From Minisyncoccota bacterium (lineage in GTDB: Bacteria > Patescibacteriota > Minisyncoccia > 2-02-FULL-40-12 > IGHO2-12-FULL-4), in the NCBI GenBank assembly GCA_036517795.1, contig DATDTF010000011.1, forward strand, positions 9,772-73,771: a stretch of 64,000 nucleotides of DNA, given 5' to 3'. Positions 2,741-39,703 of the stretch are shown piece by piece (within the stretch, counting starts at the first letter, position 1; each line of letters starts with the position of its first letter). A model generated the notes under the pieces. The model was not told the origin of the DNA and ran no database searches. It saw only the letters and a program-made list of their open reading frames with translations. A program made the translations under genes and the position numbers.

Positions 2741-3897
2741 ATAGAAATCTAAAGTTTCCCTACGTTTTTTTGCTTTGTTTTTTAAGTCTTAACCTTTCTT
2801 CACCGGGACAAGAGTCAACACAGTTCAAAGTAGAGGTAAAGAATGTTCACCTGCCCCTGCTAATTTTTGACAGGGGACAGGCAATAAAGCTTAACAAAGA
2901 AAACTTTAGAATTTTTGAGGGTGAAAAAAATGTTAACGGGCAAGTTGTCTGGGCGGAACAAGGGATAGTAAGTTTCAGCAGATATGAAGACCAGGCCATT
3001 GCTCTAGCGGTAGCCATAGACTCAAGCGAGTCTATGATTCCTACTTTTCAACCCAACACTCAACTTGAAGAAAACAAACTGGAGCAAGCCAAAAATGCCG
3101 CCCGTTCACTGTTTCAATCAGTTTTTAGGGAAGAAAAAGACATCGGCTTAGCTTCAGAAATCGCTTATGAAGTTAACTTTCTGGACTCTGGTAAGCTGGA
3201 AGAAGCTTTCGGCGTCAATATCCCAAGGAGTTTCTTTTTTAGAAACACCTATTTCTCCTTCATCAAAAAATACAACACCGTAACCCTTGCCTCAACCAGT
3301 CTTTTCATCAATCAGGACTGGACTGACAATCTAAAAAAAATTGAGATCGGCATAAGCAAAGCCAATCAGCCCGGAGGCAACACACCACTAAGAGACGCTG
3401 CGTTTAATTTAGCCCAACACTTTTCTCATGTTAACGGCGATTTCCTAAGAGTGGCGGTTATTCTGACCGACGGTCTGGACATGCCAGACCCCCAAACAAC
3501 GGGTGAGGTAAAAATCAACAGCCACAGTTTGGCCGAAGTTATAAGTGAACTGCAAAACAACCAAGTGTTGGTTTATACTGTCGGCCTTTACCAGCAGGAA
3601 CCGGCTCTTTTGTTCGGCTCTAATCGGGCAGTTCAGGTGACAGATTTTCTAGAAGAGTTGGCGAAAAACACAGGCGGACTGGCTTTCTTTGAAGCAAACC
3701 TCTCGAGGTTAAGCGCTGTATTTTTCAAAATTGGCGCGATGATTAGAAGTGTTAATTTTTTGAGCTATGAACCGACCAGCAACATTGAGGGCGCGAGACT
3801 AATCAAGGTAGAGACAGGGGGGTGGGATTACAACAAAAAATGGCACAAAAAAAACTACACTCTTTTTCACAGACAAGGATATTTTTACAAAAAGTAA
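2737..3897 (+). CDS. secreted von Willebrand factor A (vWA)-like domain protein
   Basis: Signal peptide. MIDAS-type DxSxS motif (AIDSSESM). Later GGNTPL and ILTDG motifs typical of vWA folds. Confidence 0.45.
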   Translation: MNRNLKFPYVFLLCFLSLNLSSPGQESTQFKVEVKNVHLPLLIFDRGQAIKLNKENFRIFEGEKNVNGQVVWAEQGIVSFSRYEDQAIALAVAIDSSESMIPTFQPNTQLEENKLEQAKNAARSLFQSVFREEKDIGLASEIAYEVNFLDSGKLEEAFGVNIPRSFFFRNTYFSFIKKYNTVTLASTSLFINQDWTDNLKKIEIGISKANQPGGNTPLRDAAFNLAQHFSHVNGDFLRVAVILTDGLDMPDPQTTGEVKINSHSLAEVISELQNNQVLVYTVGLYQQEPALLFGSNRAVQVTDFLEELAKNTGGLAFFEANLSRLSAVFFKIGAMIRSVNFLSYEPTSNIEGARLIKVETGGWDYNKKWHKKNYTLFHRQGYFYKK

Positions 3898-3927
3898 CGG
3901 ACGGCAAAACGCCGTCTTTTTATTTTT
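3898..3927 (+). terminator. rho-independent terminator
   Basis: GACGGC-AAAAC-GCCGTC hairpin plus a T-run 1 nt after the stop codon. Confidence 0.6.
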
Positions 3928-4186
3928 GTGTCGCTTCGCCAATACTGCTTTTTCCGGTCAATTAAAACCAAGCTTCGCAGATATAGCCTTTTCGGTACTT
4001 TCGTCTGCTCCAGCGGCAGACTCACTCGCTGTTCGCCTGGGTTTCAGGAGGAGTTAAGATTAATTATACTCCTCCTGACCAAGCAAACCGCAGGCTCACA
4101 GCGACCTCAAAGACTATATCTGCTACGCTTTCATATTTCACCCAATGTTAACCAAAAACCTCTTGTTTTCCAACATTTTTTGACCA

Positions 4187-4317: not shown

Positions 4318-5067
4318 ATGAGAGCTTTGAGAATTTGGTTAGGTTTTTTATTGGGATTTCTGATTGGGGTGGTTTTTTTTACCTCAATCGGCTTGGCCCA
4401 GGACGAACTATCCAGGGTCATTAATAGCAATGTCCGGCTCATCGAGCGGAATCATGTCCGTGGGGACGTTGCCAATGCTCGGGCCGGAATCCACAATTTC
4501 ATGTACCATAACCAGTACGGTTATGGTTACGAAAACGACGGCTACTTCTATGGAACCGACCAGTACGGTCGGGGAAACCGTGGGAGGACCCGCATCAGTC
4601 CCATTGAAGTTGGGATTGGTGGAGCCATAATCGGCGGAACCGTCGGCGGATGGAAAGGCGCCGCTATTGGTGGCGTCAGTGGTTATTTCGGGACGAAGGC
4701 CGTAAAAGTCATCGTCAACCACAAAAGAAATAAGAAAGCCGAAAAAGAAGCCGAGGCTATGGCCACCCAAGCAGAGGCGGAAGCTCAAGCCATGCTTGAG
4801 AAAAAGTTTTTCTGGAACGACTTTGAGTCTGTATCCGTCGGGGTTTTCTATCAAGATAACTCCGGCTCACAGTACAAAAAGGTCGGTCCAGGACAACGTG
4901 TTGAGTTGTTCGTTCTGCCCGGTACCGAGATTGGAGTCATGGCCGAGAACATGACAACTCGGGAGGGACGAAATATTAACCTGGAGCTTCGATACGGAAA
5001 TGGTAAACAGAAGCTCCCTGCCAACTCCGGGTGGAGAGTATTCAACCCGGAGACAGGAGGCTATTAG
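4318..5067 (+). CDS. secreted/membrane glycine-zipper protein
   Basis: Signal peptide. GxxxG-rich stretch (GIGGAIIGGTVGGWKGAAIGGVSGYFG) typical of glycine-zipper 2TM domains. Confidence 0.4.
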   Translation: MRALRIWLGFLLGFLIGVVFFTSIGLAQDELSRVINSNVRLIERNHVRGDVANARAGIHNFMYHNQYGYGYENDGYFYGTDQYGRGNRGRTRISPIEVGIGGAIIGGTVGGWKGAAIGGVSGYFGTKAVKVIVNHKRNKKAEKEAEAMATQAEAEAQAMLEKKFFWNDFESVSVGVFYQDNSGSQYKKVGPGQRVELFVLPGTEIGVMAENMTTREGRNINLELRYGNGKQKLPANSGWRVFNPETGGY

Positions 5068-5555: not shown

Positions 5556-6260
5556 ATGGAACGTAAAATTATCTTTTCACCAGGAGAGTACTATCATGTT
5601 TATAATCGTGGTGTTGAAAAACGTAAAATTTTTCTTGAGGATAGAGATTATAATCGTTTTTTAAAAATGCTTTTTTTGGCAAATGGGTCTAACCCAATTG
5701 TTTTTAAAACTGTCCAAGGGCTGCCCTTGGATAAACTTGAGCCAGGAGAAAGAGTGGTTGCTATTGGTGCTTTTGTTCTAATGCCCAACCATTTTCATAT
5801 TCTTGTAAAAGAAAGGGTGGCAGGTGGTTTAACAAACTTTATGCTGAAACTTACCACAGGATATGCTATGTATTTCAATAAAAAATATGAGAGAGTTGGT
5901 TCATTATTCCAGAGTAGGTTTAAGGCGGAACACGTTGACGATGACGACTATCTAAAATATTTATTTTCGTATATACATTTGAATCCAATTAAAATTATTG
6001 AGTCGTCTTGGAAAGAAACAGGGATAACGAACATTAAAAAAGCAGAAGTATTCCTCAATAACTACCGATATTCTAGTTACCCTGATTATGTAGCAGGGTA
6101 TAGGCCAGAAAAAAAGATTCTTAACCTGAAAGAGTTTCCAAATTATTTTGAAAATAAACATATTTTCGCCAACTTTCATAAGGAATGGTTGGTTTTAAAA
6201 GCCAACTATCATCAACTATCCAAGGGCTGCCCTTGGATAGTTGATGATTATAAAAAATAA
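5556..6260 (+). CDS. IS200/IS605-family (Y1 HUH) transposase, REP-associated tyrosine transposase (RayT)-like
   Basis: HUH motif MPNHFHILV. N-terminal GEYYHVYNRG. Catalytic-Tyr region FNKKYERVGSLFQSRF. Start trimmed to MERKII. Flanked by, and containing, REP-like hairpins. Confidence 0.7.
   Translation: MERKIIFSPGEYYHVYNRGVEKRKIFLEDRDYNRFLKMLFLANGSNPIVFKTVQGLPLDKLEPGERVVAIGAFVLMPNHFHILVKERVAGGLTNFMLKLTTGYAMYFNKKYERVGSLFQSRFKAEHVDDDDYLKYLFSYIHLNPIKIIESSWKETGITNIKKAEVFLNNYRYSSYPDYVAGYRPEKKILNLKEFPNYFENKHIFANFHKEWLVLKANYHQLSKGCPWIVDDYKK
5713..5731. repeat. REP-like palindrome inside the transposase CDS (TCCAAGGGC t GCCCTTGGA)
   Basis: Same core as the flanking palindromes. It encodes QGLPLD. 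Confidence 0.6.
6210..6246. repeat. REP-like palindrome (18 bp arms) at the transposase 3' end
   Basis: CATCAACTATCCAAGGGC t GCCCTTGGATAGTTGATG. It encodes the C-terminal LSKGCPWIVDD. Confidence 0.7.
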
Positions 6261-6710
6261 ATGCAATTTCTATCAAAAAGCTCAAAACAAACACAAAAAT
6301 TGGCAGAAAATTTGGCTAAGGAAAGTGTTAAAAAATACTTTCAAAAAAAAGGATCCTTGATAGTTGGTTTGGAAGGTGAGCTCGGTGCGGGAAAAACTAC
6401 TTTCGTGAAAGGTTTCGCCAAAGGCCTGGGTCTAAAAAATAAAATTTCCAGCCCGACTTTTGTTTTAATGAAATCCTATAACTTAAAACTTGTAACCTAT
6501 AACAATCTTTACCACATTGACGCCTATAGGCTCAAAGACCACAAAGATTTAATTAAACTGGGTATAAAAGAAATTTTAAATGACCCAAAAAATTTAGTCT
6601 TAATTGAATGGTCTGACAGAGTAAAAAAAATACTGCCAAAAAATTATCTGAAGATTCACATAGACCACATAGACGAGATGACCAGAAAGATCTTAATTAG
6701 GACCTTATAA
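6261..6710 (+). CDS. tsaE: tRNA threonylcarbamoyladenosine biosynthesis ATPase TsaE (YjeE)
   Basis: About 150 aa. P-loop GELGAGKTTFVKGFAKGLG, characteristic of TsaE. Confidence 0.65.
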   Translation: MQFLSKSSKQTQKLAENLAKESVKKYFQKKGSLIVGLEGELGAGKTTFVKGFAKGLGLKNKISSPTFVLMKSYNLKLVTYNNLYHIDAYRLKDHKDLIKLGIKEILNDPKNLVLIEWSDRVKKILPKNYLKIHIDHIDEMTRKILIRTL

Positions 6711-6816: not shown

Positions 6817-9414
6817 ATGAAAAAGTTAATTCTAATTGACGCCAATGCTTTGGTCCACCGAGCCTTTCATGCTTTGCCGCCTTTAACTTCCCCGCAGGGC
6901 GTGATTGTCAATGCAGTTTACGGCTTTACCTCGGTACTGCTTAAGACCATAAAAGACATGCAGCCGGATTATATGGCTGCCGCTTTTGACTTGGCCGGAC
7001 CGACTTTCCGCCACGAAGAGTTTGAGGAATACAAAGCTCACCGCCAAAAAGCACCTGACGAACTTTATGCACAAATCCCTCTCATCCAAGAAGTTTTAAA
7101 AGCCTTCGGAATAGAAATTTTTACAAAAGAAGGTTACGAAGCTGATGACCTTATCGGTTCTTTGGCTGAAAAAGCTAAAAAAAATCAACAGAATGGCGGA
7201 CTGCAAACAGTTATTCTGACCGGGGATTTAGATACGCTCCAGTTAGTTGAAGATGATAAAGTCGTTGTTTTTACCCTACGCAAAGGAGTAAGCGATACGG
7301 TAACCTACAATGAAAAATCTGTCTTAGAACGTTATGGCCTGGAACCTTACCAAGTTGTGGATTTCAAAGGATTAAAAGGTGATCCGTCAGACAATATCCC
7401 CGGAGTTCCCGGTATAGGCGAAAAAACAGCTATGGCCCTCCTGCAAAAATATGAAACAGTTGAAAACCTATATGACCAGCTTAAGAAAATTAAAGAGTTC
7501 AAAAAAGGTGAGGTCTTGAGCGCCAAGCTGGCCCAGAAACTTAAAGAAAATGAAAAACAGGCAGTCTTCAGTAAAAGATTGGCAACAATCATCACTGATC
7601 TTGATATTGATTTCTCATTGGAGAAAGTAAATTGGAAAAATAAATATAACAAAGGAACAGTTACTCAAGTTCTGAAAAACTTAGGTTTTAACAGCCTACT
7701 TGCTCGCCTTCCGGACGGACAGGCATCCTTACCTGAACTTGACACAATAAAAAACAAAAACCAATCCGAAAATCGGGAAAGTGAGCAAAAGAGCTTGCGT
7801 TTTAATGAACCACAGCCTTTGATTTTACAAACTTCCGACCCGAGTGTCGCTTACTTAAACGGTGACACCACCACACCAGAAAAGATATCTTCAAAACTTA
7901 AAGATATCTTAGAAGATGGAAACATTGCCAAAAGAGGGCATAATCTGAAGCCTGTTGTTAAACTTCTCCTAAACCAAGACATCCGCGTTAAAAATCTTGA
8001 CTTTGACACGGCCCTGGCATCTTACTTGGTGAGACCGGAACTTAAAGACTACGACTTAGACAAAATCTACTTTATGGAGTTTGCCCAATCTTTTACAGAT
8101 ACGGGTTCAGCCTTACCAAAGTTAGTGGAGGTTCTCGGAAAAAAACTAAAAGAAAAAGGGCTGATGAAGGTTTTTGAAGAAATTGAAATGCCTCTTATCC
8201 CGGTTCTGGCGGAAATGGAAAAAAACGGCATCAAGATTAACACAGCCGGCTTGGAAAAATTATCAGAAAAAGTAAATACTGAAATTACCGGCTTGGAAAA
8301 GAAAATTTATGAATTAGCCGGACAAGAATTTAATATCAACTCACCCCAACAACTCGGAGAAATTCTTTTTGACAAGCTTCAACTTAAAACTAGGGTCAGG
8401 AAGACCGGCGGGGGAGCACGTTCAACGGCCGTGTCCGAACTTGAAAAACTGCACGACGAACATCCGATAATTAAGCTGGTCATGCAATACCGCGAACTTC
8501 AAAAACTGAAGACAACTTATATTGAACCGTTTCCGACTCTCGTTGACCCCGAAGATAGCCGCCTGCACACCACCTACAACCAAACAGGAACAGTTACCGG
8601 CAGGCTTTCCAGCCAAGACCCAAATCTCCAAAACATTCCCATTCGCACTGAACTTGGACAAGAGTTTAGAAAAGCCTTTGTTGCTGAAGACAGCTGGCAG
8701 CTTCTGTCACTTGATTATTCTCAAATTGAGTTAAGAGTAGCCGCCTACCTGTCTGGCGATCAAAAAATGATTGCGGCTTTTCAAAACAATGAAGACATTC
8801 ACACCAGAACCGCCGCCGAAGTATTTGAGGTCAGCCCCGATAAAGTTACCCATCAAATGCGTAGAGAAGCCAAAGCCCTCAACTTCGGCATTTTGTTCGG
8901 TATGGGAGTTCTGGGTTTTGCCCGTTCTGCGGGCGTGGATAAAATGCGCGCCAGAGAGTTTATTACAAAATATCTAAACAAGTTTTCAGGCATGGCAGAC
9001 TACATGGAAAAAGCCAAGACTGAAGCCAAAGAAAAAGGCTATGTTCAAACTTACTTCGGCAGAAGAAGGGATTTGCCGGAGATAAATTCCAGCATGCCTC
9101 ACATGGTAGCCCAAGCTGAAAGAATGGCCATTAATGCCCCGATACAAGGGACGGAAGCCGATATTATGAAGCTGGCAATGATAGGGGTTTACAATTTCAT
9201 ACACGAAAGTAAGATTGAAAACGAAGCTAGAATTTTACTTCAAGTCCATGATGAGTTACTGTGTGAAGTAAAGAAAGAGAAGATACGGGAGATATCAGGC
9301 AAATTTAAAGAAATTATGGAAAAAGTATGGACTCCCATCTCAAAAAACAACCAAGCTTCAGTTCCCATAGTAGTTGACGTGAAAATAGGGGAAAACTGGG
9401 CGGAAATGTCATGA
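6817..9414 (+). CDS. polA: DNA polymerase I
   Basis: 865 aa. N-terminal 5'-3' exonuclease (LILIDANALVHRAFHALP). Polymerase motifs DYSQIELR and QVHDELL. Confidence 0.9.
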   Translation: MKKLILIDANALVHRAFHALPPLTSPQGVIVNAVYGFTSVLLKTIKDMQPDYMAAAFDLAGPTFRHEEFEEYKAHRQKAPDELYAQIPLIQEVLKAFGIEIFTKEGYEADDLIGSLAEKAKKNQQNGGLQTVILTGDLDTLQLVEDDKVVVFTLRKGVSDTVTYNEKSVLERYGLEPYQVVDFKGLKGDPSDNIPGVPGIGEKTAMALLQKYETVENLYDQLKKIKEFKKGEVLSAKLAQKLKENEKQAVFSKRLATIITDLDIDFSLEKVNWKNKYNKGTVTQVLKNLGFNSLLARLPDGQASLPELDTIKNKNQSENRESEQKSLRFNEPQPLILQTSDPSVAYLNGDTTTPEKISSKLKDILEDGNIAKRGHNLKPVVKLLLNQDIRVKNLDFDTALASYLVRPELKDYDLDKIYFMEFAQSFTDTGSALPKLVEVLGKKLKEKGLMKVFEEIEMPLIPVLAEMEKNGIKINTAGLEKLSEKVNTEITGLEKKIYELAGQEFNINSPQQLGEILFDKLQLKTRVRKTGGGARSTAVSELEKLHDEHPIIKLVMQYRELQKLKTTYIEPFPTLVDPEDSRLHTTYNQTGTVTGRLSSQDPNLQNIPIRTELGQEFRKAFVAEDSWQLLSLDYSQIELRVAAYLSGDQKMIAAFQNNEDIHTRTAAEVFEVSPDKVTHQMRREAKALNFGILFGMGVLGFARSAGVDKMRAREFITKYLNKFSGMADYMEKAKTEAKEKGYVQTYFGRRRDLPEINSSMPHMVAQAERMAINAPIQGTEADIMKLAMIGVYNFIHESKIENEARILLQVHDELLCEVKKEKIREISGKFKEIMEKVWTPISKNNQASVPIVVDVKIGENWAEMS

Positions 9415-24436: not shown

Positions 24437-24523
24437 TGGTGCCGGTGGTGGGAGTCGGACCCACAATCCCTTACGGGCGACGCATCTTAAGTGCGTTGCG
24501 TATGCCAATTCCGCCACACCGGC
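24437..24523 (-). tRNA. tRNA-Leu(UAA), type II with long variable arm
   Basis: GCCGGTG acceptor. D-arm GGCGGAATTGG. Anticodon loop CTTAAGA. Long variable arm. T-arm GGGTCCGACTCCC. Confidence 0.75.
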
Positions 24524-24528
24524 ATTAG

Positions 24529-25023
24529 TTATATAAAGATCTTTTTAGTGTTTTTATCTCTGTTTTTTCCTCTGTGCGTTAACTGCAAGCTATGACAATT
24601 TGGGCAGAGTATCCTTAGGTTTTCTAAACGATTATCGTGCCTATCACCATTAATATGATCTAGTTCTAACGGGATCCTATTATCAACTGACTTTTTTGAC
24701 CATCCACACTCTTCACAACTCATACTTTTAAGATTAACCTGAAAAAGTCTCTTTTTTAACTTAAAGCTTTGATAGGTACTGTTTCTGATTAATATTTTCT
24801 CCAACGGTATTAGTGGTTTTCCGAGTCCACGTAGACCCTTATTCCAAGCCTTGCCTTTAAAATGTTTCGTACTGAAGTTGTTTTCTTCAATATATTTCTT
24901 TAGCTGTTCATAATTACCACCAGCTTCCCTCAACTTCAACTTTGCCAAAACTTGCCTATAGCTAGGAGATTTTTTGACTGCTTCTCGCAGTTGCTCTGTC
25001 GTCCAAGTTCTCTTTTTGCCCAT
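24529..25023 (-). CDS. HNH endonuclease (free-standing, homing-endonuclease-like)
   Basis: INGDRHDNRLENLRILCPNCH and CEECGW zinc-ribbon/HNH motifs. Sits between rfbA and tRNA-Leu. Confidence 0.6.
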   Translation of the reverse strand: MGKKRTWTTEQLREAVKKSPSYRQVLAKLKLREAGGNYEQLKKYIEENNFSTKHFKGKAWNKGLRGLGKPLIPLEKILIRNSTYQSFKLKKRLFQVNLKSMSCEECGWSKKSVDNRIPLELDHINGDRHDNRLENLRILCPNCHSLQLTHRGKNRDKNTKKIFI

Positions 25024-32262: not shown

Positions 32263-32295
32263 TGATGCGCTCCGATTTGTAAAGTTTCACCTTTG

Positions 32296-32366
32296 TGGAC
32301 CTACCGGGATTCGAACCCGGGACTAGCCCATGCCATGGGCTCGTGTTACCCCTATACCATAGGCCC
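32296..32366 (-). tRNA. tRNA-Ala(GGC) (probable)
   Basis: GGGCCTA acceptor with G3:U70. Anticodon loop ATGGCAT. T-arm CCGGGTTCGAATCCCGG. The D-stem has one mismatch. Confidence 0.5.
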
Positions 32367-33726: not shown

Positions 33727-35199
33727 ATGAAACTACCCGAAGAAGTAAAATTGATTTTAGAAAAGCTAACTGAAAACAATTTTCAGGCTTTTGTTGTTGG
33801 TGGCTGTGTGCGCGATTTATTGATGGGCAAAGAACCAAAAGACTGGGACGTAACAACAAATGCCAAGCCCGAAGAAATACAAAAAATTTTTCCTGACAGT
33901 TTTTATGAAAACGAGTTTGGTACGGTAGGCGTAAAGGTTTCAAGGAAAGTAAGCCCTCCGAATGCCGATATTGCAAATTCTCTTCAAGTAGTTGAGGTTA
34001 CTACCTACAGAACCGAGTCCAAATACACCGACAAAAGACATCCCGACAAAATTGAATTTGCCGACAAGCTTGAGGACGATTTAAAAAGAAGAGACTTCAC
34101 TGTTAATGCACTGGCCATGGACAGTGAGGGAAATATTATTGACCTTTTTAATGGGCAGAATGATTTGAAAAAAAAGATTGTTAAGGCCGTCGGCAATGCC
34201 GAAGAAAGGTTCTCTGAAGACGCTTTGCGCATGATAAGAGCAATAAGACTGGCTACGGTATTGGGCTTTGAGATTAAGACTGAAACACTGAAAGCCATCA
34301 AAGCAAAGCACTTACTAATGCAAATAATTTCAAAAGAGAGAATCAGGGATGAATTTGTAAAAATTATAAATTCTCCAGAGGCAAAAGCCGGCATGGAGTT
34401 GTTAAGAGAGACTGAACTAATGAGATATGTTGTTCCGGAAATCCTTGAAGGAGTCGGGGTGGAACAGAACCTCCACCATATTTATACTGTCTGGGAACAC
34501 AACGTCCGTGCTCTGCAATATGCCTGCGATAAAAACTATTCCACCGAAGTAAGGCTGGCTTCTTTACTGCATGATATCGGCAAACCCAGAGCAAAAAGAG
34601 GGGAGGGTAGAAATTCCACTTTTTATGGACACGAAGTTGTGGGAGCCAGAATGACTGCTCAAATTCTTGATCGTTTGAAATTGTCCAAAAACCAGACAGA
34701 TAAAATCACTAAATTGGTCAGATGGCATCTTTTCTATTACAATGTCGGCGAAGTTACCGAAAGCTCGGTTAGACGCTTGGTTGCTAATATAGGCAAGGAA
34801 AACGTTGAAGATTTGATTAAAGTCAGGGAGGCCGACCGTATTGGTTCCGGTACACCCAAGGCCAAGCCCTATAAGCTCCGCCATTTACAGTTTGTAATTG
34901 ATAAAGTGGCCCGAGATCCAATATCTCCAAAGATGCTTAAAGTTAACGGCAACGATATTATGAAACTCTTAGATATGGTTCCCGGACCAAAAATCGGTCT
35001 GATTATGTCCGCATTAATGGACGAAATACTTGACGACCCGACCAAAAATACCAAAGATTATTTAGAAAAAAGGGTAGAGGAACTAAGCAAACTTCCAGAC
35101 AAAGAACTTCTGAACTTGGGTCAGCAGGGAAAATCCAAGCTGGCTGAAGAAGAAGAAAAAGAAGTGGAGAAAATTAAGCAAAAGCATTTTGTAAGTTAA
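33727..35199 (+). CDS. cca: CCA-adding tRNA nucleotidyltransferase with HD domain
   Basis: FVVGGCVRDLLMG...DWDV head-domain motifs. HDIGKP HD motif. Embedded in a tRNA cluster. Confidence 0.85.
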   Translation: MKLPEEVKLILEKLTENNFQAFVVGGCVRDLLMGKEPKDWDVTTNAKPEEIQKIFPDSFYENEFGTVGVKVSRKVSPPNADIANSLQVVEVTTYRTESKYTDKRHPDKIEFADKLEDDLKRRDFTVNALAMDSEGNIIDLFNGQNDLKKKIVKAVGNAEERFSEDALRMIRAIRLATVLGFEIKTETLKAIKAKHLLMQIISKERIRDEFVKIINSPEAKAGMELLRETELMRYVVPEILEGVGVEQNLHHIYTVWEHNVRALQYACDKNYSTEVRLASLLHDIGKPRAKRGEGRNSTFYGHEVVGARMTAQILDRLKLSKNQTDKITKLVRWHLFYYNVGEVTESSVRRLVANIGKENVEDLIKVREADRIGSGTPKAKPYKLRHLQFVIDKVARDPISPKMLKVNGNDIMKLLDMVPGPKIGLIMSALMDEILDDPTKNTKDYLEKRVEELSKLPDKELLNLGQQGKSKLAEEEEKEVEKIKQKHFVS

Positions 35200-35204
35200 A
35201 TTTT

Positions 35205-35276
35205 CGGGCTGTAGTGTACCGGCAACACGGGTCGTTCGGGTCGATCAGACAGAGGGTTCGATTCCCTCCAGCCCGA
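35205..35276 (+). tRNA. tRNA-Pro(CGG)
   Basis: C1:G72 acceptor (CGGGCTG/CAGCCCG), typical of tRNA-Pro. Anticodon loop TTCGGGT. T-arm GAGGGTTCGATTCCCTC. Confidence 0.7.
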
Positions 35277-35368
35277 CAACATGAGTTTATATTTATCAAG
35301 AATAACTAGGCTTGGGCCTATAGCACAGTGGTAATGCGCCGCATTTTCACCCCGTTAGAAATGCCTCT

Positions 35369-35443
35369 GGGCCAGTAGCTCAGCGGCAGAGCACTGCATT
35401 CGCATTGCAGGGGTCGGGGGTTCAATTCCCCCCTGGTCCACCA
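35369..35443 (+). tRNA. tRNA-Ala(CGC) with encoded CCA
   Basis: GGGCCAG acceptor with G3:U70. D-arm TAGCTCAGCGGCAGAGCA. Anticodon loop TTCGCAT. T-arm GGGGGTTCAATTCCCCC. Flanked by a 15 bp inverted repeat. Confidence 0.8.
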
Positions 35444-35610
35444 GCATTTCTAACGGGGCGCAATTGCAATAGAGATGGGGGATTCTCCCTAATTTTTTAA
35501 CGCTCGTTATGCCTTCGGCATAAACACTCGCTAAAATTAGGAGTTAAAGTGAAGTAGTTCATTTTAACTGCCCCTAGGTCCACCAAGAGAAATTAAAGAT
35601 TAAAAAATCA

Positions 35611-35636
35611 CGCGAGAATGCGTGATTTTTCTAAAG
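35611..35636. terminator. bidirectional hairpin terminator
   Basis: AAAAATCACGC-GAGAA-TGCGTGATTTTT lies between the tRNA cluster (+) and nadV (-). Confidence 0.55.
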
Positions 35637-35642
35637 AACTAT

Positions 35643-37034
35643 TTAAACTCGGGCTCTTTTGCGAATTTCTTCAAAGGTCTGGTCAACAAGAAGGACGCCA
35701 TTGCGAAAAACTTCTGTGAGCTGGTTGGGCAAAACATTACCGTCCAACCTTACTGTCTTAAATGTACCATCAACATCTCTAATCAAGGCCAATCGGCCGC
35801 TTTTAGATTTTTTGTCTGGGTCAGTAACTGGGTTTTTAGAAACATCACGCCACTGATCACCAACACAAACCGCACTACACTTAAAAGCAAATTTCTGTGA
35901 GTCCCGATTGACTTTCTGAAGAAGACCACCACCAGAACCGAACGTTATATTATCTGCAGACCAATTTCTGTCTTTAACTGCTTCCAAAACGGAGCCAATC
36001 ATATCGTGGTCAATTCCATCTCCTTGAATAACTCTAACGTGAGGATCCAGTATACGATAACCTTTTTTATTCAGAGAAGAACCAAAAGCTTCACCGAGAA
36101 TATCCAGAATCTCCGGCACGATGTCTGGTGGATTACCACTATCTGGCCTGATAACCACAACACCATTTCTGGACAAAACCTTATCACGTAGTTGCTTGCC
36201 CCAAATATTTCGACAAGCGTTAAAAACATCGTAGCTGTCACTTACCACCGCCACTAAGCCTTCGGGAAACTGGGTAAGCATATTGTCATAAGCATAAACT
36301 TCGTTCTCCCGACCCCAGGAAGTAATAGTGCTATGTTCGGCAGCCGGAACTGAAAAACCGGCCATTTCTTCACCATAATATTCTTCCAGAAGTTCTATTG
36401 CCGCTAAGGTATCCGTCCCCTTGAAGTTAACCAGATGGCTGGCACCTCCAATCGCAGCCGACTCAACACTAGTGCTTCCCCTAAAACCAAAATCATGAAG
36501 CTTAAAGTCAATCAGGTTTGGGTCACCAGTATCTTCTAGGTACTTAAGGATTAGCTTTCTGGACATGCGACTATTTGTACAGACAGTTGAAGGATACCAG
36601 GACTGAACAAGCACTGTCTCAAAGTAACTTGTCAACCACCGGCAGTTTGGATCGGTACTTTCAACAGTCATAAGAACATTGGATACGGGGACAGTTGAAC
36701 CCTCAAGAACCGCCCGGATTGAAAGTGGCGGAGTGCCACCATATTCATTAAGAATATATTTCCAGCCGCGTTCATAGAAAATAGCATTGTTGTTAAAGTG
36801 TCTTGAAAAAAAAGTCGAAGCTTTTTCTAGATTATCTTTAGTAACCCTAGCATTAACAAAGTGCTTTTTCAGAATATATTGAAGGCCAAAGAAAGTAACC
36901 TCCGGCCAGCGCCCGCCACGACTCTCAAAGTAAGAGTGGACGTTGGTAACATTGTGGGGGTACTGAAAAGCATGCGAAACTTTATAACTATCCGTCAGTC
37001 CAATTATGCCAAGCCTTTTAAAGGTGCTTCTCAT
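35643..37034 (-). CDS. nadV: nicotinamide phosphoribosyltransferase
   Basis: 463 aa. N-terminal GLTDSYKVSHAFQYP matches the NAMPT/NadV signature. Confidence 0.7.
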   Translation of the reverse strand: MRSTFKRLGIIGLTDSYKVSHAFQYPHNVTNVHSYFESRGGRWPEVTFFGLQYILKKHFVNARVTKDNLEKASTFFSRHFNNNAIFYERGWKYILNEYGGTPPLSIRAVLEGSTVPVSNVLMTVESTDPNCRWLTSYFETVLVQSWYPSTVCTNSRMSRKLILKYLEDTGDPNLIDFKLHDFGFRGSTSVESAAIGGASHLVNFKGTDTLAAIELLEEYYGEEMAGFSVPAAEHSTITSWGRENEVYAYDNMLTQFPEGLVAVVSDSYDVFNACRNIWGKQLRDKVLSRNGVVVIRPDSGNPPDIVPEILDILGEAFGSSLNKKGYRILDPHVRVIQGDGIDHDMIGSVLEAVKDRNWSADNITFGSGGGLLQKVNRDSQKFAFKCSAVCVGDQWRDVSKNPVTDPDKKSKSGRLALIRDVDGTFKTVRLDGNVLPNQLTEVFRNGVLLVDQTFEEIRKRARV

Positions 37035-37959
37035 TCTTCTCTCCTTTTCTTTCTTTCAAATATTCAACAAGTCTTTGGCCCAGTTCCTTGTGCTCATCCA
37101 CTAAAATTTCCGGAATTTTACTAATCGGAACCTTTATTAATTCTGCAATATCATCGTCCGCTTGAGGCTTACCAAAAACATAAGAGGCCAAATAAAAAGC
37201 GGTCAGAATTTTGTCGCCATGACCTCTGTAACGCCAATCATCAATCCGGAAGGAGCCCAGAAACTCAAGACCGCCTATTTCAACATGAGCTTCCTCGTTT
37301 ACCTCACGCCGAACAGCGACTTCAAAGTTTTTGTCACTCGGATCAAGGAAGCCACCAATAAAGCGGGGACATTTTTCAGCAGGCTTTCGACAAAGCAAAA
37401 CTTGAGCCTCACCTTTTCCGTTTTCCGGCTCCATAAGTATCGCCACGTCTATCGTCTGATGAGAAATCAAACGCCGATTAGTACAGGCATAAATAACACC
37501 CGCTCTGAAGTCCGCCGAATCACGAATATTTTGAGCAATCTCTTCTCTTGTCTCTGTGGCCGAAGGAACAACTACTGTCTCCAGCTCAACAATCGGCCAC
37601 TTACCAAAGTAATGACCGACAAAACTGTCGCGCGAACCGTAAAGAATCGCTTGACTGTTTGGAAATGCTTGACTAATAACTTTATCCAATCGCTTTGACC
37701 ATTCCTGATCAGAACCTGTATCATGAATCGGCATAATAGTTGCCCACGGAAAAGCACTTTGCATCATCCGGGCTCTGGTAGGATAGTCCAGCGGATCTTC
37801 AGCCGAAAGCTGGACAGAGCTGCAACCCAGACAAATTAAAACTTTGCCATGTCTCTTGTGAACTTCCTCTATCAAGTTACTGTGGCCCTGATGAGGCATA
37901 TCCACCTGAAACCTACCGACAATAACCCCAACTTTACTCACAAAAGCACCTCCTTTCAT
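37018..37959 (-). CDS. nadM: bifunctional NMN adenylyltransferase / Nudix ADP-ribose pyrophosphatase
   Basis: N-terminal cytidylyltransferase motif GRFQ..HQGH. C-terminal Nudix box (GGFLDP...REVNEEAHVE). 17 nt overlap with nadV. Confidence 0.7.
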   Translation of the reverse strand: MKGGAFVSKVGVIVGRFQVDMPHQGHSNLIEEVHKRHGKVLICLGCSSVQLSAEDPLDYPTRARMMQSAFPWATIMPIHDTGSDQEWSKRLDKVISQAFPNSQAILYGSRDSFVGHYFGKWPIVELETVVVPSATETREEIAQNIRDSADFRAGVIYACTNRRLISHQTIDVAILMEPENGKGEAQVLLCRKPAEKCPRFIGGFLDPSDKNFEVAVRREVNEEAHVEIGGLEFLGSFRIDDWRYRGHGDKILTAFYLASYVFGKPQADDDIAELIKVPISKIPEILVDEHKELGQRLVEYLKERKGEKNEKHL

Positions 37960-38044
37960 AACAATTTATTAAGAAACTCTTGGCCAATGAAGGCCAAGCT
38001 TTAGCGTCTAAAGCCAAAGCTTGAACTTCATTAAGCCTGAAGTT

Positions 38045-38725
38045 TTAAATTATTTCAACCAGCTTAAGTTTGTCACTTTTAAAACGATAAAGAGCTGCCG
38101 GACGGTTAGCCAGACCTCTTAACTCTTCTTTAACTGGCAGTAATATTCGCAAGGACAATATTTTTTTTCTGAAATTGCGTCTGTCCAGTCTTTTGTGAAG
38201 AATCGTCTCGTATAGATTCTGCAGTTCTGTTAGAGTAAATCTCTTGGGCATGAGAGTGAAGGCTATATTGGTGTAAGTTAATTTGGATTTAAGCCTTTCA
38301 AATGCAAATTTAATTACTTCTGCATGATCATACGCCAAGTGGGGGAGTTCCTTGACCGAAAACCAGCAAGCCTCATACTTTTGATCCGAATCCTTTTTAT
38401 ATTTCAACTTCGCCTCTTGACCCAAACCAAGATAAGCAACCGCCACAACCCTACCTCTCGGGTCTCTGTGAATACCGCTGAAAGTGTAAAGCTGTTCTAA
38501 ATAAGCGTTTTTTACACCACCTTTTCCCCAGAGATGCCTCCAAGCCGCTCGATCAGCCGTCTCTTTAGGATCGATCAAACCGCCGGGCAAACCCCAATGG
38601 TTAGCATAATAAGGAGGACGATCAACTTTAATCAAACGAACCAAAAGCTCTTTATTTTCAAAGGTAAAAAGAGCTGTATCAGCTGCCAAGACCGCAAATT
38701 TAAGTTTTGGTGTCGGTTTTTTCAT
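38045..38725 (-). CDS. nrtR: Nudix-related transcriptional regulator (NrtR-like): Nudix-like domain plus C-terminal winged helix
   Basis: Degenerate Nudix N-domain (HWGLPGGLIDPKE). C-terminal HTH-like segment. Adjacent to NAD salvage genes. Confidence 0.45.
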   Translation of the reverse strand: MKKPTPKLKFAVLAADTALFTFENKELLVRLIKVDRPPYYANHWGLPGGLIDPKETADRAAWRHLWGKGGVKNAYLEQLYTFSGIHRDPRGRVVAVAYLGLGQEAKLKYKKDSDQKYEACWFSVKELPHLAYDHAEVIKFAFERLKSKLTYTNIAFTLMPKRFTLTELQNLYETILHKRLDRRNFRKKILSLRILLPVKEELRGLANRPAALYRFKSDKLKLVEII

Positions 38726-38857
38726 GATTGTTTGTTAGTGTATTATATACACATACTACTCCCGCTTAAAAAACCTGTCAAGCCCAGTAGTCAACTTTAT
38801 ATGTCTGTTGACTTTAATTAGTGTTAGTAATACACTATCTATATTAGTCCATCACCT

Positions 38858-39703
38858 ATGCAAAGTCAAATAAAAACTATCGGTTTCTTTTATAGAGAGA
38901 ATCATTCTCTTAGTAAAGTCTGGGAGAACAAGATTGTAAAATGGCTTAAAAATAAATATCCAAAAGTTAAAGTTGTCCGAAAGCACCCGGAATTTTTGAT
39001 AGTTCTTGGAGGTGACGGCACAATACTGGAAGCAGTGAGAAAATTTGCTAAAAATACAGCTCCCACAATCTTGGGTCTCAATTTGGGTCATGTTGGTTTT
39101 TTAGCCTCAATAAGAAATCCGAAAAACTTTCTGACTGGTCTTGATAAGCTCTTTAAAGAAGGGCCCCGAATAATAAAAAAACTGATGGTGGAGGTTGAAG
39201 TAATCAGAAACAACAAAAAAGTATTCAGAACTAACGCCTTTAACGACGTTGTTGTTGAAAACCCTTTAGGGGTAGTGGAAATTGAGGTTAAAATTGAAAA
39301 AGATACAATTCAATGCGTTAGAGGCACCGGAGTTATGGTTTCTACAGCCAGCGGTTCAACAGCTTTCAACCTTTCAGCTCATGGACCAATCGTTATGCCG
39401 GATATAAAGTGCCTGATTGTGACTGAAATAATGGATCATAACATTCCGACACCCAGCATAATCGTTAAGCGGAACAGGGAAATAGAAATTAAAATCGCCA
39501 GTTTTAGGGAAAGAAAACTGATATCTTTAACCAAAACTAAAGAACCTTTTGATGTACTACTGATTGCCGACGGAGAAAACTTGTTTCCACTAAAAGAAAA
39601 GGATGCGGTTTTAGTCAGACGATCTTCGCGTTTAGTAAAGTTCGCTGAACTGGAAAAAAATTACTTTTTCAAAAGTCTGCAGGAAAAATTTTACTTCGGA
39701 TAG
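38858..39703 (+). CDS. nadK: NAD+ kinase
   Basis: GGDGTILEA motif and NGSTAFNLSAHGPIV. Confidence 0.85.
   Translation: MQSQIKTIGFFYRENHSLSKVWENKIVKWLKNKYPKVKVVRKHPEFLIVLGGDGTILEAVRKFAKNTAPTILGLNLGHVGFLASIRNPKNFLTGLDKLFKEGPRIIKKLMVEVEVIRNNKKVFRTNAFNDVVVENPLGVVEIEVKIEKDTIQCVRGTGVMVSTASGSTAFNLSAHGPIVMPDIKCLIVTEIMDHNIPTPSIIVKRNREIEIKIASFRERKLISLTKTKEPFDVLLIADGENLFPLKEKDAVLVRRSSRLVKFAELEKNYFFKSLQEKFYFG

Follow-up and report, generated by a model that had tools for sequence, protein, structure and literature searches.

Phages and integrative and conjugative elements (ICEs) integrate into transfer RNA (tRNA) genes carrying the displaced 3′ part, by which the gene is restored, and a 2002 study by Williams is said to have distinguished sublocation classes among the elements that integrate into tRNA genes. 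Bacteria also harbour miniature inverted-repeat transposable elements (MITEs) and other palindromic repeats, such as the Correia elements of Neisseria, the Rickettsia palindromic elements and REPINs. Small genomes are a known trait of bacteria of the candidate phyla radiation (CPR). In animals, Dada DNA transposons insert specifically into tRNA and small nuclear RNA genes (PMC8869645). Their insertions cluster around the tRNA anticodon arm, where flanking target bases are often replaced by element-borne sequence; they are eukaryotic, have their own transposase, lie in opposite orientation to the tRNA, need multicopy targets and bring no replacement gene (PMC8869645). In archaea, disrupted tRNA genes include those with multiple or non-canonical introns and split tRNAs, and intron transposition has been described in Thermoproteales (PMC10714607, PMC4090602). 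Here we analyse a stretch of 64,000 nt from a Minisyncoccota bacterium (contig DATDTF010000011.1, assembly GCA_036517795.1; hereafter the window), in which an intact tRNA-Ala(CGC) gene lies between the arms of a palindromic element that itself interrupts an outer, decayed tRNA-Ala gene. On the best reading, this nested locus is neither an intron nor a split tRNA nor a transfer-messenger RNA (tmRNA); with a probability that we put at roughly two in three, a mobile palindromic cassette with its own replacement tRNA took over the cognate resident tRNA gene.

The functional gene of the locus is the inner tRNA-Ala(CGC), at 35369–35443 on the plus strand, like all parts of the nested structure. It is called by both ARAGORN and Rfam (RF00005, 67.5 bits against a gathering threshold of 29, E = 1.5e-12), and G3:U70, A73 and an encoded CCA can be read directly in its sequence; a first-pass annotation of the window, made from the letters alone, had identified this gene correctly. 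It is enclosed by the arms CCCCGTTAGAAATGC (35350–35364) and GCATTTCTAACGGGG (35444–35458), the latter abutting the CCA end of the inner tRNA. Together they form a perfect 15-nt inverted repeat, and the two arms are the sole perfect matches to the arm 15-mer on either strand of the window. The same annotation had recognised the perfect repeat and placed its right arm correctly, but its left arm, set at 35351–35365, was one base off. An unpaired 5′ leader, CTCT (35365–35368), separates the left arm from the inner tRNA, and a CCTCT leader is also found in L068, one of the loci collected here for comparison. At the left junction, four extra bases, TTCA (35346–35349), became apparent when the junctions of tRNA-associated copies were compared.

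Alignment places the relic of the outer gene on both sides of these features. Its 5′ part (35314–35345) comprises the acceptor strand GGGCCTA, the D arm, the anticodon-stem 5′ strand CCGCA, U32 and U33. The tRNA-like nature of this part had been seen at first pass, but it starts at 35314, with GGGCCTATAGCACAGTGG... (GGGCCTATAGCACAGTGGTAATGCG...), and not at 35307. The middle part (35459–35491), delineated by the alignment, a terminator scan and a strain polymorphism at 35464, holds the anticodon CGC, A37/A38, a decayed anticodon-stem 3′ strand, the variable region and a T-arm remnant, GGGGGATTCTCCCTA. It is followed in the T-stem/acceptor region by a second insertion of 79 nt (35492–35570), which the sequence and its fold resolve into two hairpins. 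This insertion is bordered by a 6-nt direct repeat (TCCCTA/CCCCTA) and lies between the first TCCCTA copy and the terminal CCCCTAGGTCCACCA. The 3′ end of the relic (35571–35585) consists of CCCC (T-stem 3′ strand), TAGGTCC (acceptor 3′ strand) and ACCA, the sequence ...CCCCTAGGTCCACCA stopping at 35585. As had been noted, the outer acceptor strands GGGCCTA and TAGGTCC are complementary (7/7 pairs, with G3:U70) and are the same as those of the tRNA-Ala(GGC) gene at 32295–32366 on the minus strand. Folding of 35307–35585 (279 nt), a check suggested at first pass, gave −115.6 kcal/mol (z = −6.75 against shuffled sequence), and the predicted structure contains the outer acceptor stem, the 15-bp stem and the inner cloverleaf. 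The overall anatomy first proposed, a tRNA-like gene interrupted by a tRNA-carrying insertion, is right.

For comparison with relatives, TTCA plus the element and the second insertion were removed from the outer gene, which was then aligned to intact tRNA-Ala(CGC) genes. Its 5′ 32 nt match the intact tRNA-Ala(CGC) of L013 at 28/32 positions and that of L006 at 27/32, as against 23/32 for the window's own inner tRNA. The inner gene, for its part, matches the inner tRNA of L068 at 69/73 positions and the tRNA of L002 at 66/73. On the 3′ side of the element the outer sequence resumes with CGCAA, which puts the split exactly between U33 and C34 of a UUCGCAA loop and makes the outer gene a former tRNA-Ala(CGC). 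These alignments indicate that the outer gene is the lineage's native tRNA-Ala(CGC) and the inner one of a foreign type. The outer gene is decayed: its anticodon-stem 3′ strand reads TGCAA in place of the expected TGCGG and has gained one T, two anticodon-stem pairs are lost (3/5 left), and the T arm has shrunk to GGGGGATTCTCCC, with most of the T loop gone.

The insertion is present in all contigs of this organism (9/9), and at least eight independent assemblies agree at every base of the 443-nt intergenic region (nine loci compared), so the nested locus is not an assembly artefact. A strain variant of this organism, L209, differs by three substitutions, at 35464, 35555 and 35562, all of which lie in the relic or the second insertion, while the arms and the inner tRNA are unchanged. 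L209 is collinear with the window as far as ...TAGGTCCACC (35585/35586) and diverges completely thereafter (locus positions 4335 to 4391, where it ends). Because homology stops at the 3′ end of the outer tRNA, the old tRNA end marks a boundary of genome variation, as expected for the end of a former tRNA gene. No homologue of the downstream 127 nt (35459–35585) was found in loci L001–L200, and relatives of the second insertion were found neither in these loci nor elsewhere in the window.

The arms of the window element are not unique to this organism. The first 10 nt of each arm correspond to the conserved ends of a family, CCCCGTTAGA...TCTAACGGGG, and the pattern CCCCGTTAGA-N75-105-TCTAACGGGG was found in at least 120 metagenome contigs, with no match among viral contigs. 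The loci collected here contain 141 copies, whose interiors are very diverse and whose arms are mostly complementary past the conserved 10 nt. Identical 4-nt flanks (TAAA, TTTA, TGAA, TTGA and others) border 82 of the 141 copies, where chance would predict about 1 in 256, a pattern characteristic of target-site duplication. Among 109 testable copies, only 6 might interrupt an open reading frame (ORF), which argues for an intergenic, MITE-like mobile element and not for an intron of protein-coding genes. With terminal inverted repeats conserved across many copies, the arms can be assigned on sequence grounds to an abundant palindromic family that appears MITE-like. Two other classifications were considered. 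An integron attC-like site was rejected: the GTTAGA/TCTAAC motifs resemble the core sites, but their polarity relative to the stem is opposite to that of attC. A single-strand element of the IS200/IS605 or REPIN type could explain why TTCA is constant, but seems less probable, since 82/141 copies have direct 4-nt repeats, as ordinary target duplication would produce.

Paired element ends 0.8–2.2 kb apart enclose ORFs that are ordinary genes, encoding a sigma factor, HigBA, an epimerase and a nitroreductase. Pairs of CCCCGTTAGA elements surround the HigB/HigA toxin-antitoxin pair in L110 (2912–4188), and a sigma-70 factor together with a DUF5667 protein in L109 (7079–9243). These arrangements hint that CCCCGTTAGA elements may bracket mobile gene cassettes too. 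In the window, a solitary element end, TCTAACGGGA, lies at 24665–24674, about 140 nt from tRNA-Leu(UAA) (24437–24523, minus strand); no partner arm was found there, and this end may be the relic of another element.

A tRNA gene lies inside the element in six of the 141 copies. Besides the window copy (Ala-CGC), these are the copies in L013 and L030, from two other CPR genomes (both Pro-CGG), L108 (Pro-UGG), L143 (Val-GAC; CGTCG TTGA/TTCA[element]CAAGT CGACG) and L178 (Val-UAC; ACTCG TTTA/TTCA[element]CAAGC CGAGT). All six occupy the anticodon loop of an outer tRNA gene in the same orientation, and the bases left in that loop spell the anticodon of the tRNA inside. When the inserted bases are removed, ARAGORN calls outer genes as tRNA-Val(GAC), tRNA-Val(UAC) and tRNA-Pro(CGG). 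Cognate nesting recurs in other genomes, and the same architecture is found with unrelated arms in L068 (Ala-CGC), L119 (Arg-UCU) and L030 (Arg-UCU). In L030 (CAYVXU010000001.1, minus strand, ~3560–3960), three tRNA-Arg(UCU) genes are nested like a Russian doll: the D loop of the outermost is split by a GC-rich hairpin cassette with a second tRNA-Arg, and the anticodon loop of the second is split by another cassette with an intact tRNA-Arg(UCU) at 3733–3805. In L119 (6330–6530), the nesting of tRNA-Arg(UCU) has two levels, and downstream of it comes a tRNA-like 3′ half made up of T arm, acceptor strand and CCA; the arms in L119, CCCTGCCTGCC/GGCAGG.., resemble a common GC-rich palindrome, GCCTGCCTGCCGGTAGGCAGGG, which is present in many loci.

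Outer genes at other loci are found in several states. L007 has a decayed nested copy beside an intact tRNA-Pro, while L002 lacks an outer gene and has a window-type inner tRNA with only a right-arm remnant, GCATTTCTAACAGG. Taken in the order window, L007 and L002, these loci resemble consecutive steps in the decay of an outer gene. Hairpin insertions in the D loop were also observed in the outer relic tRNA genes of L068 (~6945–7020), L108 and L030, alongside T-loop insertions, which implies that the loops of tRNA genes have been hit repeatedly. The T-loop insertions in the outer tRNA-Pro genes of L108 and L030 share the same start, TCCGACCTGCC.

A local rearrangement without any mobile element would offer another account of the nesting. 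A palindrome-mediated duplication or a template switch would have put a tRNA copy inside its neighbour, and the likeness of the arms to a repeat family would be secondary. Partial duplications are indeed common at CPR tRNA loci (an 18-nt 3′-end repeat in L001, a 7-nt 5′-end repeat in L011 and truncated 5′ copies in L061 and L172), and the window copy has no clean target duplication. Such an origin is nonetheless unlikely. Inner and outer genes have diverged (23/32 in the 5′ half in the window, and likewise in L143 and L178), with compensatory differences in their stems, which means that the inner genes did not arise recently by local duplication of the outer ones; at least 120 elements elsewhere have exactly the same 10-nt termini; and the same inner tRNA type occurs in two outer contexts, those of the window and L068.

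The partial duplications themselves take several forms. In L001 (8186–8460), a tRNA-Ala(CGC) is followed after about 190 nt by an 18-nt direct repeat that reproduces its 3′ end exactly (GATTCCCGCCGAGTCCAC), plus CCA, which looks like a miniature integration into the T loop that brought a replacement 3′ end. In L011 (~6210–6296), GGGCCCG, the first seven nucleotides of tRNA-Ala(CGC), occurs a second time upstream; between this duplicate and the intact gene lies a 70-nt perfect hairpin, a palindromic insertion that borders the tRNA gene on its 5′ side. L061 (2750–2980) and L172 (5600–5820), both on the minus strand, contain truncated 5′ tRNA-Pro copies with an acceptor strand, D arm and altered anticodon arm just upstream of an intact tRNA-Pro(UGG).

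An intron, which the first-pass annotation had listed among its candidates, would require the nesting to be resolved at the RNA level. Both genes would then work, the hairpin with the inner tRNA being excised, for example by RNase III, RNase P or RNase Z before RtcB-type ligation, and the one locus would yield two tRNA-Ala(CGC). Several observations are in keeping with this idea. In the window, a 7-nt loop UUCGCAA with the anticodon CGC is regained when exactly TTCA plus the element is taken out, and the outer acceptor stem pairs throughout, contains G3:U70 and is followed by an encoded CCA. No stem is damaged in the outer genes of L143, L178 and L013, and all outer-gene insertions fall in D, anticodon or T loops, as archaeal introns do. 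The outer gene of the window, however, would enter splicing with 3/5 anticodon-stem pairs, an extra base, and a truncated T loop broken by 79 nt. No single contiguous excision from it (35314–35585) gave a canonical cloverleaf with the matching anticodon. In-silico splicing with 15,200 one- or two-excision combinations produced 20 marginal calls, none of them Ala(CGC), and no outer tRNA-Ala was found by ARAGORN in intron mode, a run that had been proposed along with the intron. In L143, L178 and L068, the cognate anticodon is not restored by any single contiguous excision because of an extra AG, and the outer loop of L013 has G33.

Signals of known intron classes are also missing. Group I and group II introns had no covariance-model match at gathering thresholds in the window, nor at E ≤ 10 in 35150–35700. 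An archaeal-type bulge-helix-bulge intron would show two 3-nt bulges 4 bp apart, and on inspection the 15-bp stem is continuous, with no staggered 3-nt bulges; to our knowledge, no splicing endonuclease is known in this bacterial group. That CPR genomes have intron-containing RNA genes, a point raised at first pass, is true for ribosomal RNA but does not explain the nested locus. The outer gene is, in addition, lost or decayed in L002 and L007, and the same element is overwhelmingly intergenic, with target duplications. Taken together, these results make an intron highly improbable.

The outer sequence might instead belong to a functional tRNA-like non-coding RNA, either a two-piece alanine-accepting RNA held together by the 15-bp stem once the inner tRNA has been removed, in the manner of a two-piece tmRNA, or a processing or terminator scaffold for the inner tRNA. 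G3:U70, A73 and CCA form the alanine identity set, the fold is strong (z = −6.75), and the relic T arm has become a terminator-like hairpin with a T-run. G3:U70 and ACCA, together with a partial Rfam match, led us to consider a standard, permuted or two-piece tmRNA. ARAGORN found none, and the Rfam match, a weak one to tmRNA_permuted (19 bits against a gathering score of 47), covers only the T arm of the inner tRNA. A tmRNA or other known RNA family, for which a comparison with Rfam had been proposed at first pass, was not supported, as within the nested locus only the inner tRNA reached an Rfam threshold. No plausible tag reading frame was seen when the sequence was read by eye, without a tool search. 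Other evidence against this idea comes from comparison: the downstream 127 nt are without a homologue in L001–L200, the strain polymorphisms gather in the outer region, and in the relatives L002, L009 and L027 tRNA-Ala(CGC) comes right after tRNA-Pro without the outer structure. We therefore regard a functional outer RNA as decidedly unlikely. The three relatives are too diverged to serve as empty sites.

Several observations weigh against takeover by a tRNA-carrying cassette. No transposase for the CCCCGTTAGA family was found in the collected loci, and the window holds just one full copy. The flanks of the window copy differ, with TTCA on the left and CGCA on the right, and show no clean target-site duplication; the flanks of the other tRNA-associated copies differ as well, one being TTCA and the opposite one often "NN AG". 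The outer acceptor stem has kept all its pairs (7/7), which speaks either for a fairly recent event or for some residual constraint. Survivorship alone is, moreover, not an obvious reason why tRNA-carrying elements are lacking outside cognate genes, and a targeting mechanism may be involved. The junctions do have regularities of their own. TTCA flanks one side of the element in all seven tRNA-associated CCCCGTTAGA copies (six with an intact tRNA plus the decayed L007), and an extra AG is often found two bases beyond the element on the side opposite TTCA. A 2–5-nt target duplication, TTCA...CARG and the extra AG were each tried as a single junction rule, and none fits all copies.

With these points weighed, takeover by a mobile cassette remains the reading that we favour, and it could have proceeded as follows. 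A MITE-like palindromic element with the ends CCCCGTTAGA...TCTAACGGGG and a complete foreign-type tRNA-Ala(CGC) at its centre would have inserted between U33 and C34 of the native tRNA-Ala(CGC). The insertion would have killed the resident gene while supplying a replacement in the same orientation. The outer gene would then have decayed, losing two anticodon-stem pairs and part of its T loop, and a 79-nt hairpin insertion would have arrived. Transcription of the cluster would come from upstream together with tRNA-Pro, the 15-bp stem would pair the leader with the trailer of the inner tRNA, and RNase P and 3′ processing enzymes would free the mature tRNA-Ala(CGC), leaving the outer pieces as by-products. 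The actual movement of the element is likewise inferred.

Neither a non-cognate nesting nor a cargo-less insertion in a tRNA gene was seen among the examined copies. Elements that prefer tRNA loops would persist only if the tRNA that they carry makes up for the gene lost to the insertion, after which the host could no longer dispense with them. Selection would account for the missing classes if each tRNA gene is single-copy, as expected in small genomes, and the need for the resident promoter would account for the co-orientation of inner and outer genes. All cargo-carrying copies lie in tRNA genes, and in nearly all cases the site is the anticodon loop, which suggests that loops of tRNA genes are preferred as targets.

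More generally, CPR bacteria, and possibly other subsurface bacteria, could host self-complementing mobile cassettes, in which a hairpin with a tRNA gene at its tip enters the loop of a tRNA gene with the same anticodon, destroys and replaces it, and leaves the host dependent. We hold this wider proposal tentatively, at somewhat less than even odds. If it is true, successive takeovers would leave nested "Russian doll" relics, and essential RNA genes would be subject to an undescribed form of selfish replacement, or drive. Should the pattern hold, it would give a mobile element a route for colonising an essential gene in a streamlined genome, by carrying a working copy of the gene it destroys. 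It would also account for odd tRNA-like fragments and "ghost" intron calls beside tRNA genes in CPR genomes. For annotation, tRNA halves around a tRNA would have to be read as relics and not as split genes, and nested relics could serve as natural markers for dating horizontal tRNA gene replacement. A question raised by these loci is how a hairpin element comes to lie only in the loop of its cognate tRNA.

The genes around the nested locus are CPR genes. A flanking protein shares 73–75% identity with the best metagenome-assembled genomes (MAGs), which places the window in the CPR/Patescibacteria (Parcubacteria, Yanofskybacteria-like). tRNA-Pro(CGG) lies immediately upstream (35205–35277, plus strand), as supported by ARAGORN, Rfam (53.6 bits) and synteny, and probably shares one transcription unit with the nested locus. 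On its 5′ side is the gene for the CCA-adding enzyme (33727–35199, plus strand), whose protein was found on 23 contigs. The order tRNA-Arg(CCU), CCA enzyme, tRNA-Pro(CGG), ..., tRNA-Ala(CGC) is kept in relatives. The downstream neighbour is a convergent NAMPT gene (35643–37034, minus strand), and a bidirectional intrinsic-terminator-like hairpin (35602–35631) stands between it and the RNA cluster. Within the cluster, the T-arm remnant and the T-run at 35492–35498 (35477–35498 overall) read in the terminator scan as a weak terminator-like hairpin, and may act as a weak terminator. Beside the locus, 35643–39703 forms a cluster for nicotinamide adenine dinucleotide (NAD) salvage and regulation, with NAMPT, a NadM-like cytidylyltransferase-Nudix protein, a Nudix/NrtR-like regulator and NAD kinase. 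The CCA-adding enzyme, NAMPT, NadM-Nudix and the many tRNAs prompted us to consider a phage origin, which was rejected: the neighbours match Parcubacteria/Yanofskybacteria MAGs, phage records gave tRNA-level matches only, and viral contig scans were empty.

Compared with bacterial MITEs, the family of the window element is similar in being a small, non-coding hairpin with conserved inverted termini that is abundant, mostly intergenic and flanked by short target direct repeats. Unlike them, the window copy has a complete tRNA gene as cargo and is itself located within another, the arms of the family are complementary past the conserved 10 nt through variable sequence, and no cognate transposase was found in the collected loci. 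As with tRNA-integrating phages and ICEs, mobile DNA here appears to target a tRNA gene, preserve a functional tRNA and leave a relic fragment; the classic 18-nt 3′-end direct repeat of L001 and the homology break of L209 at the outer tRNA 3′ end are further similarities. Phages and ICEs, however, carry only the 3′ portion and use site-specific recombination with direct repeats, whereas here inverted repeats enclose a whole tRNA, with the two halves of the old gene lying outside them.

Interrupted bacterial tRNA genes likewise have an insertion in the anticodon loop. In contrast to a group I intron in a bacterial tRNA gene, the insert here has no ribozyme core or Rfam match, is just 113 nt long and mostly tRNA, and splicing cannot restore the outer gene. 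Disrupted archaeal tRNA genes share with these loci the insertions in D, anticodon and T loops, the apparent movement between tRNA genes and, in some cases, nesting. They differ in that the host here is a bacterium, there is no bulge-helix-bulge, the insert holds an intact tRNA, and the outer genes decay. Dada resembles the present elements in its targeting of the anticodon arm, and its flank replacement recalls the constant TTCA; by analogy, it can be taken as a precedent for both features. The hosts here are CPR bacteria, unlike those of Dada, and the element appears to bring a replacement tRNA in the same orientation. The logic of such a cassette would also resemble that of addiction modules and homing introns, but needs no splicing. 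A literature search that covered introns in CPR tRNAs, tRNA genes that are nested or interrupted, MITEs within tRNA genes and the arm sequence yielded no account of either nested tRNA genes or this element. The separate ingredients, namely MITEs, tRNA-targeting mobile DNA and elements that restore a disrupted tRNA, are known; their combination, in which a whole cognate tRNA within a hairpin enters the loop of the gene that it replaces, with serial nesting, appears to be new.

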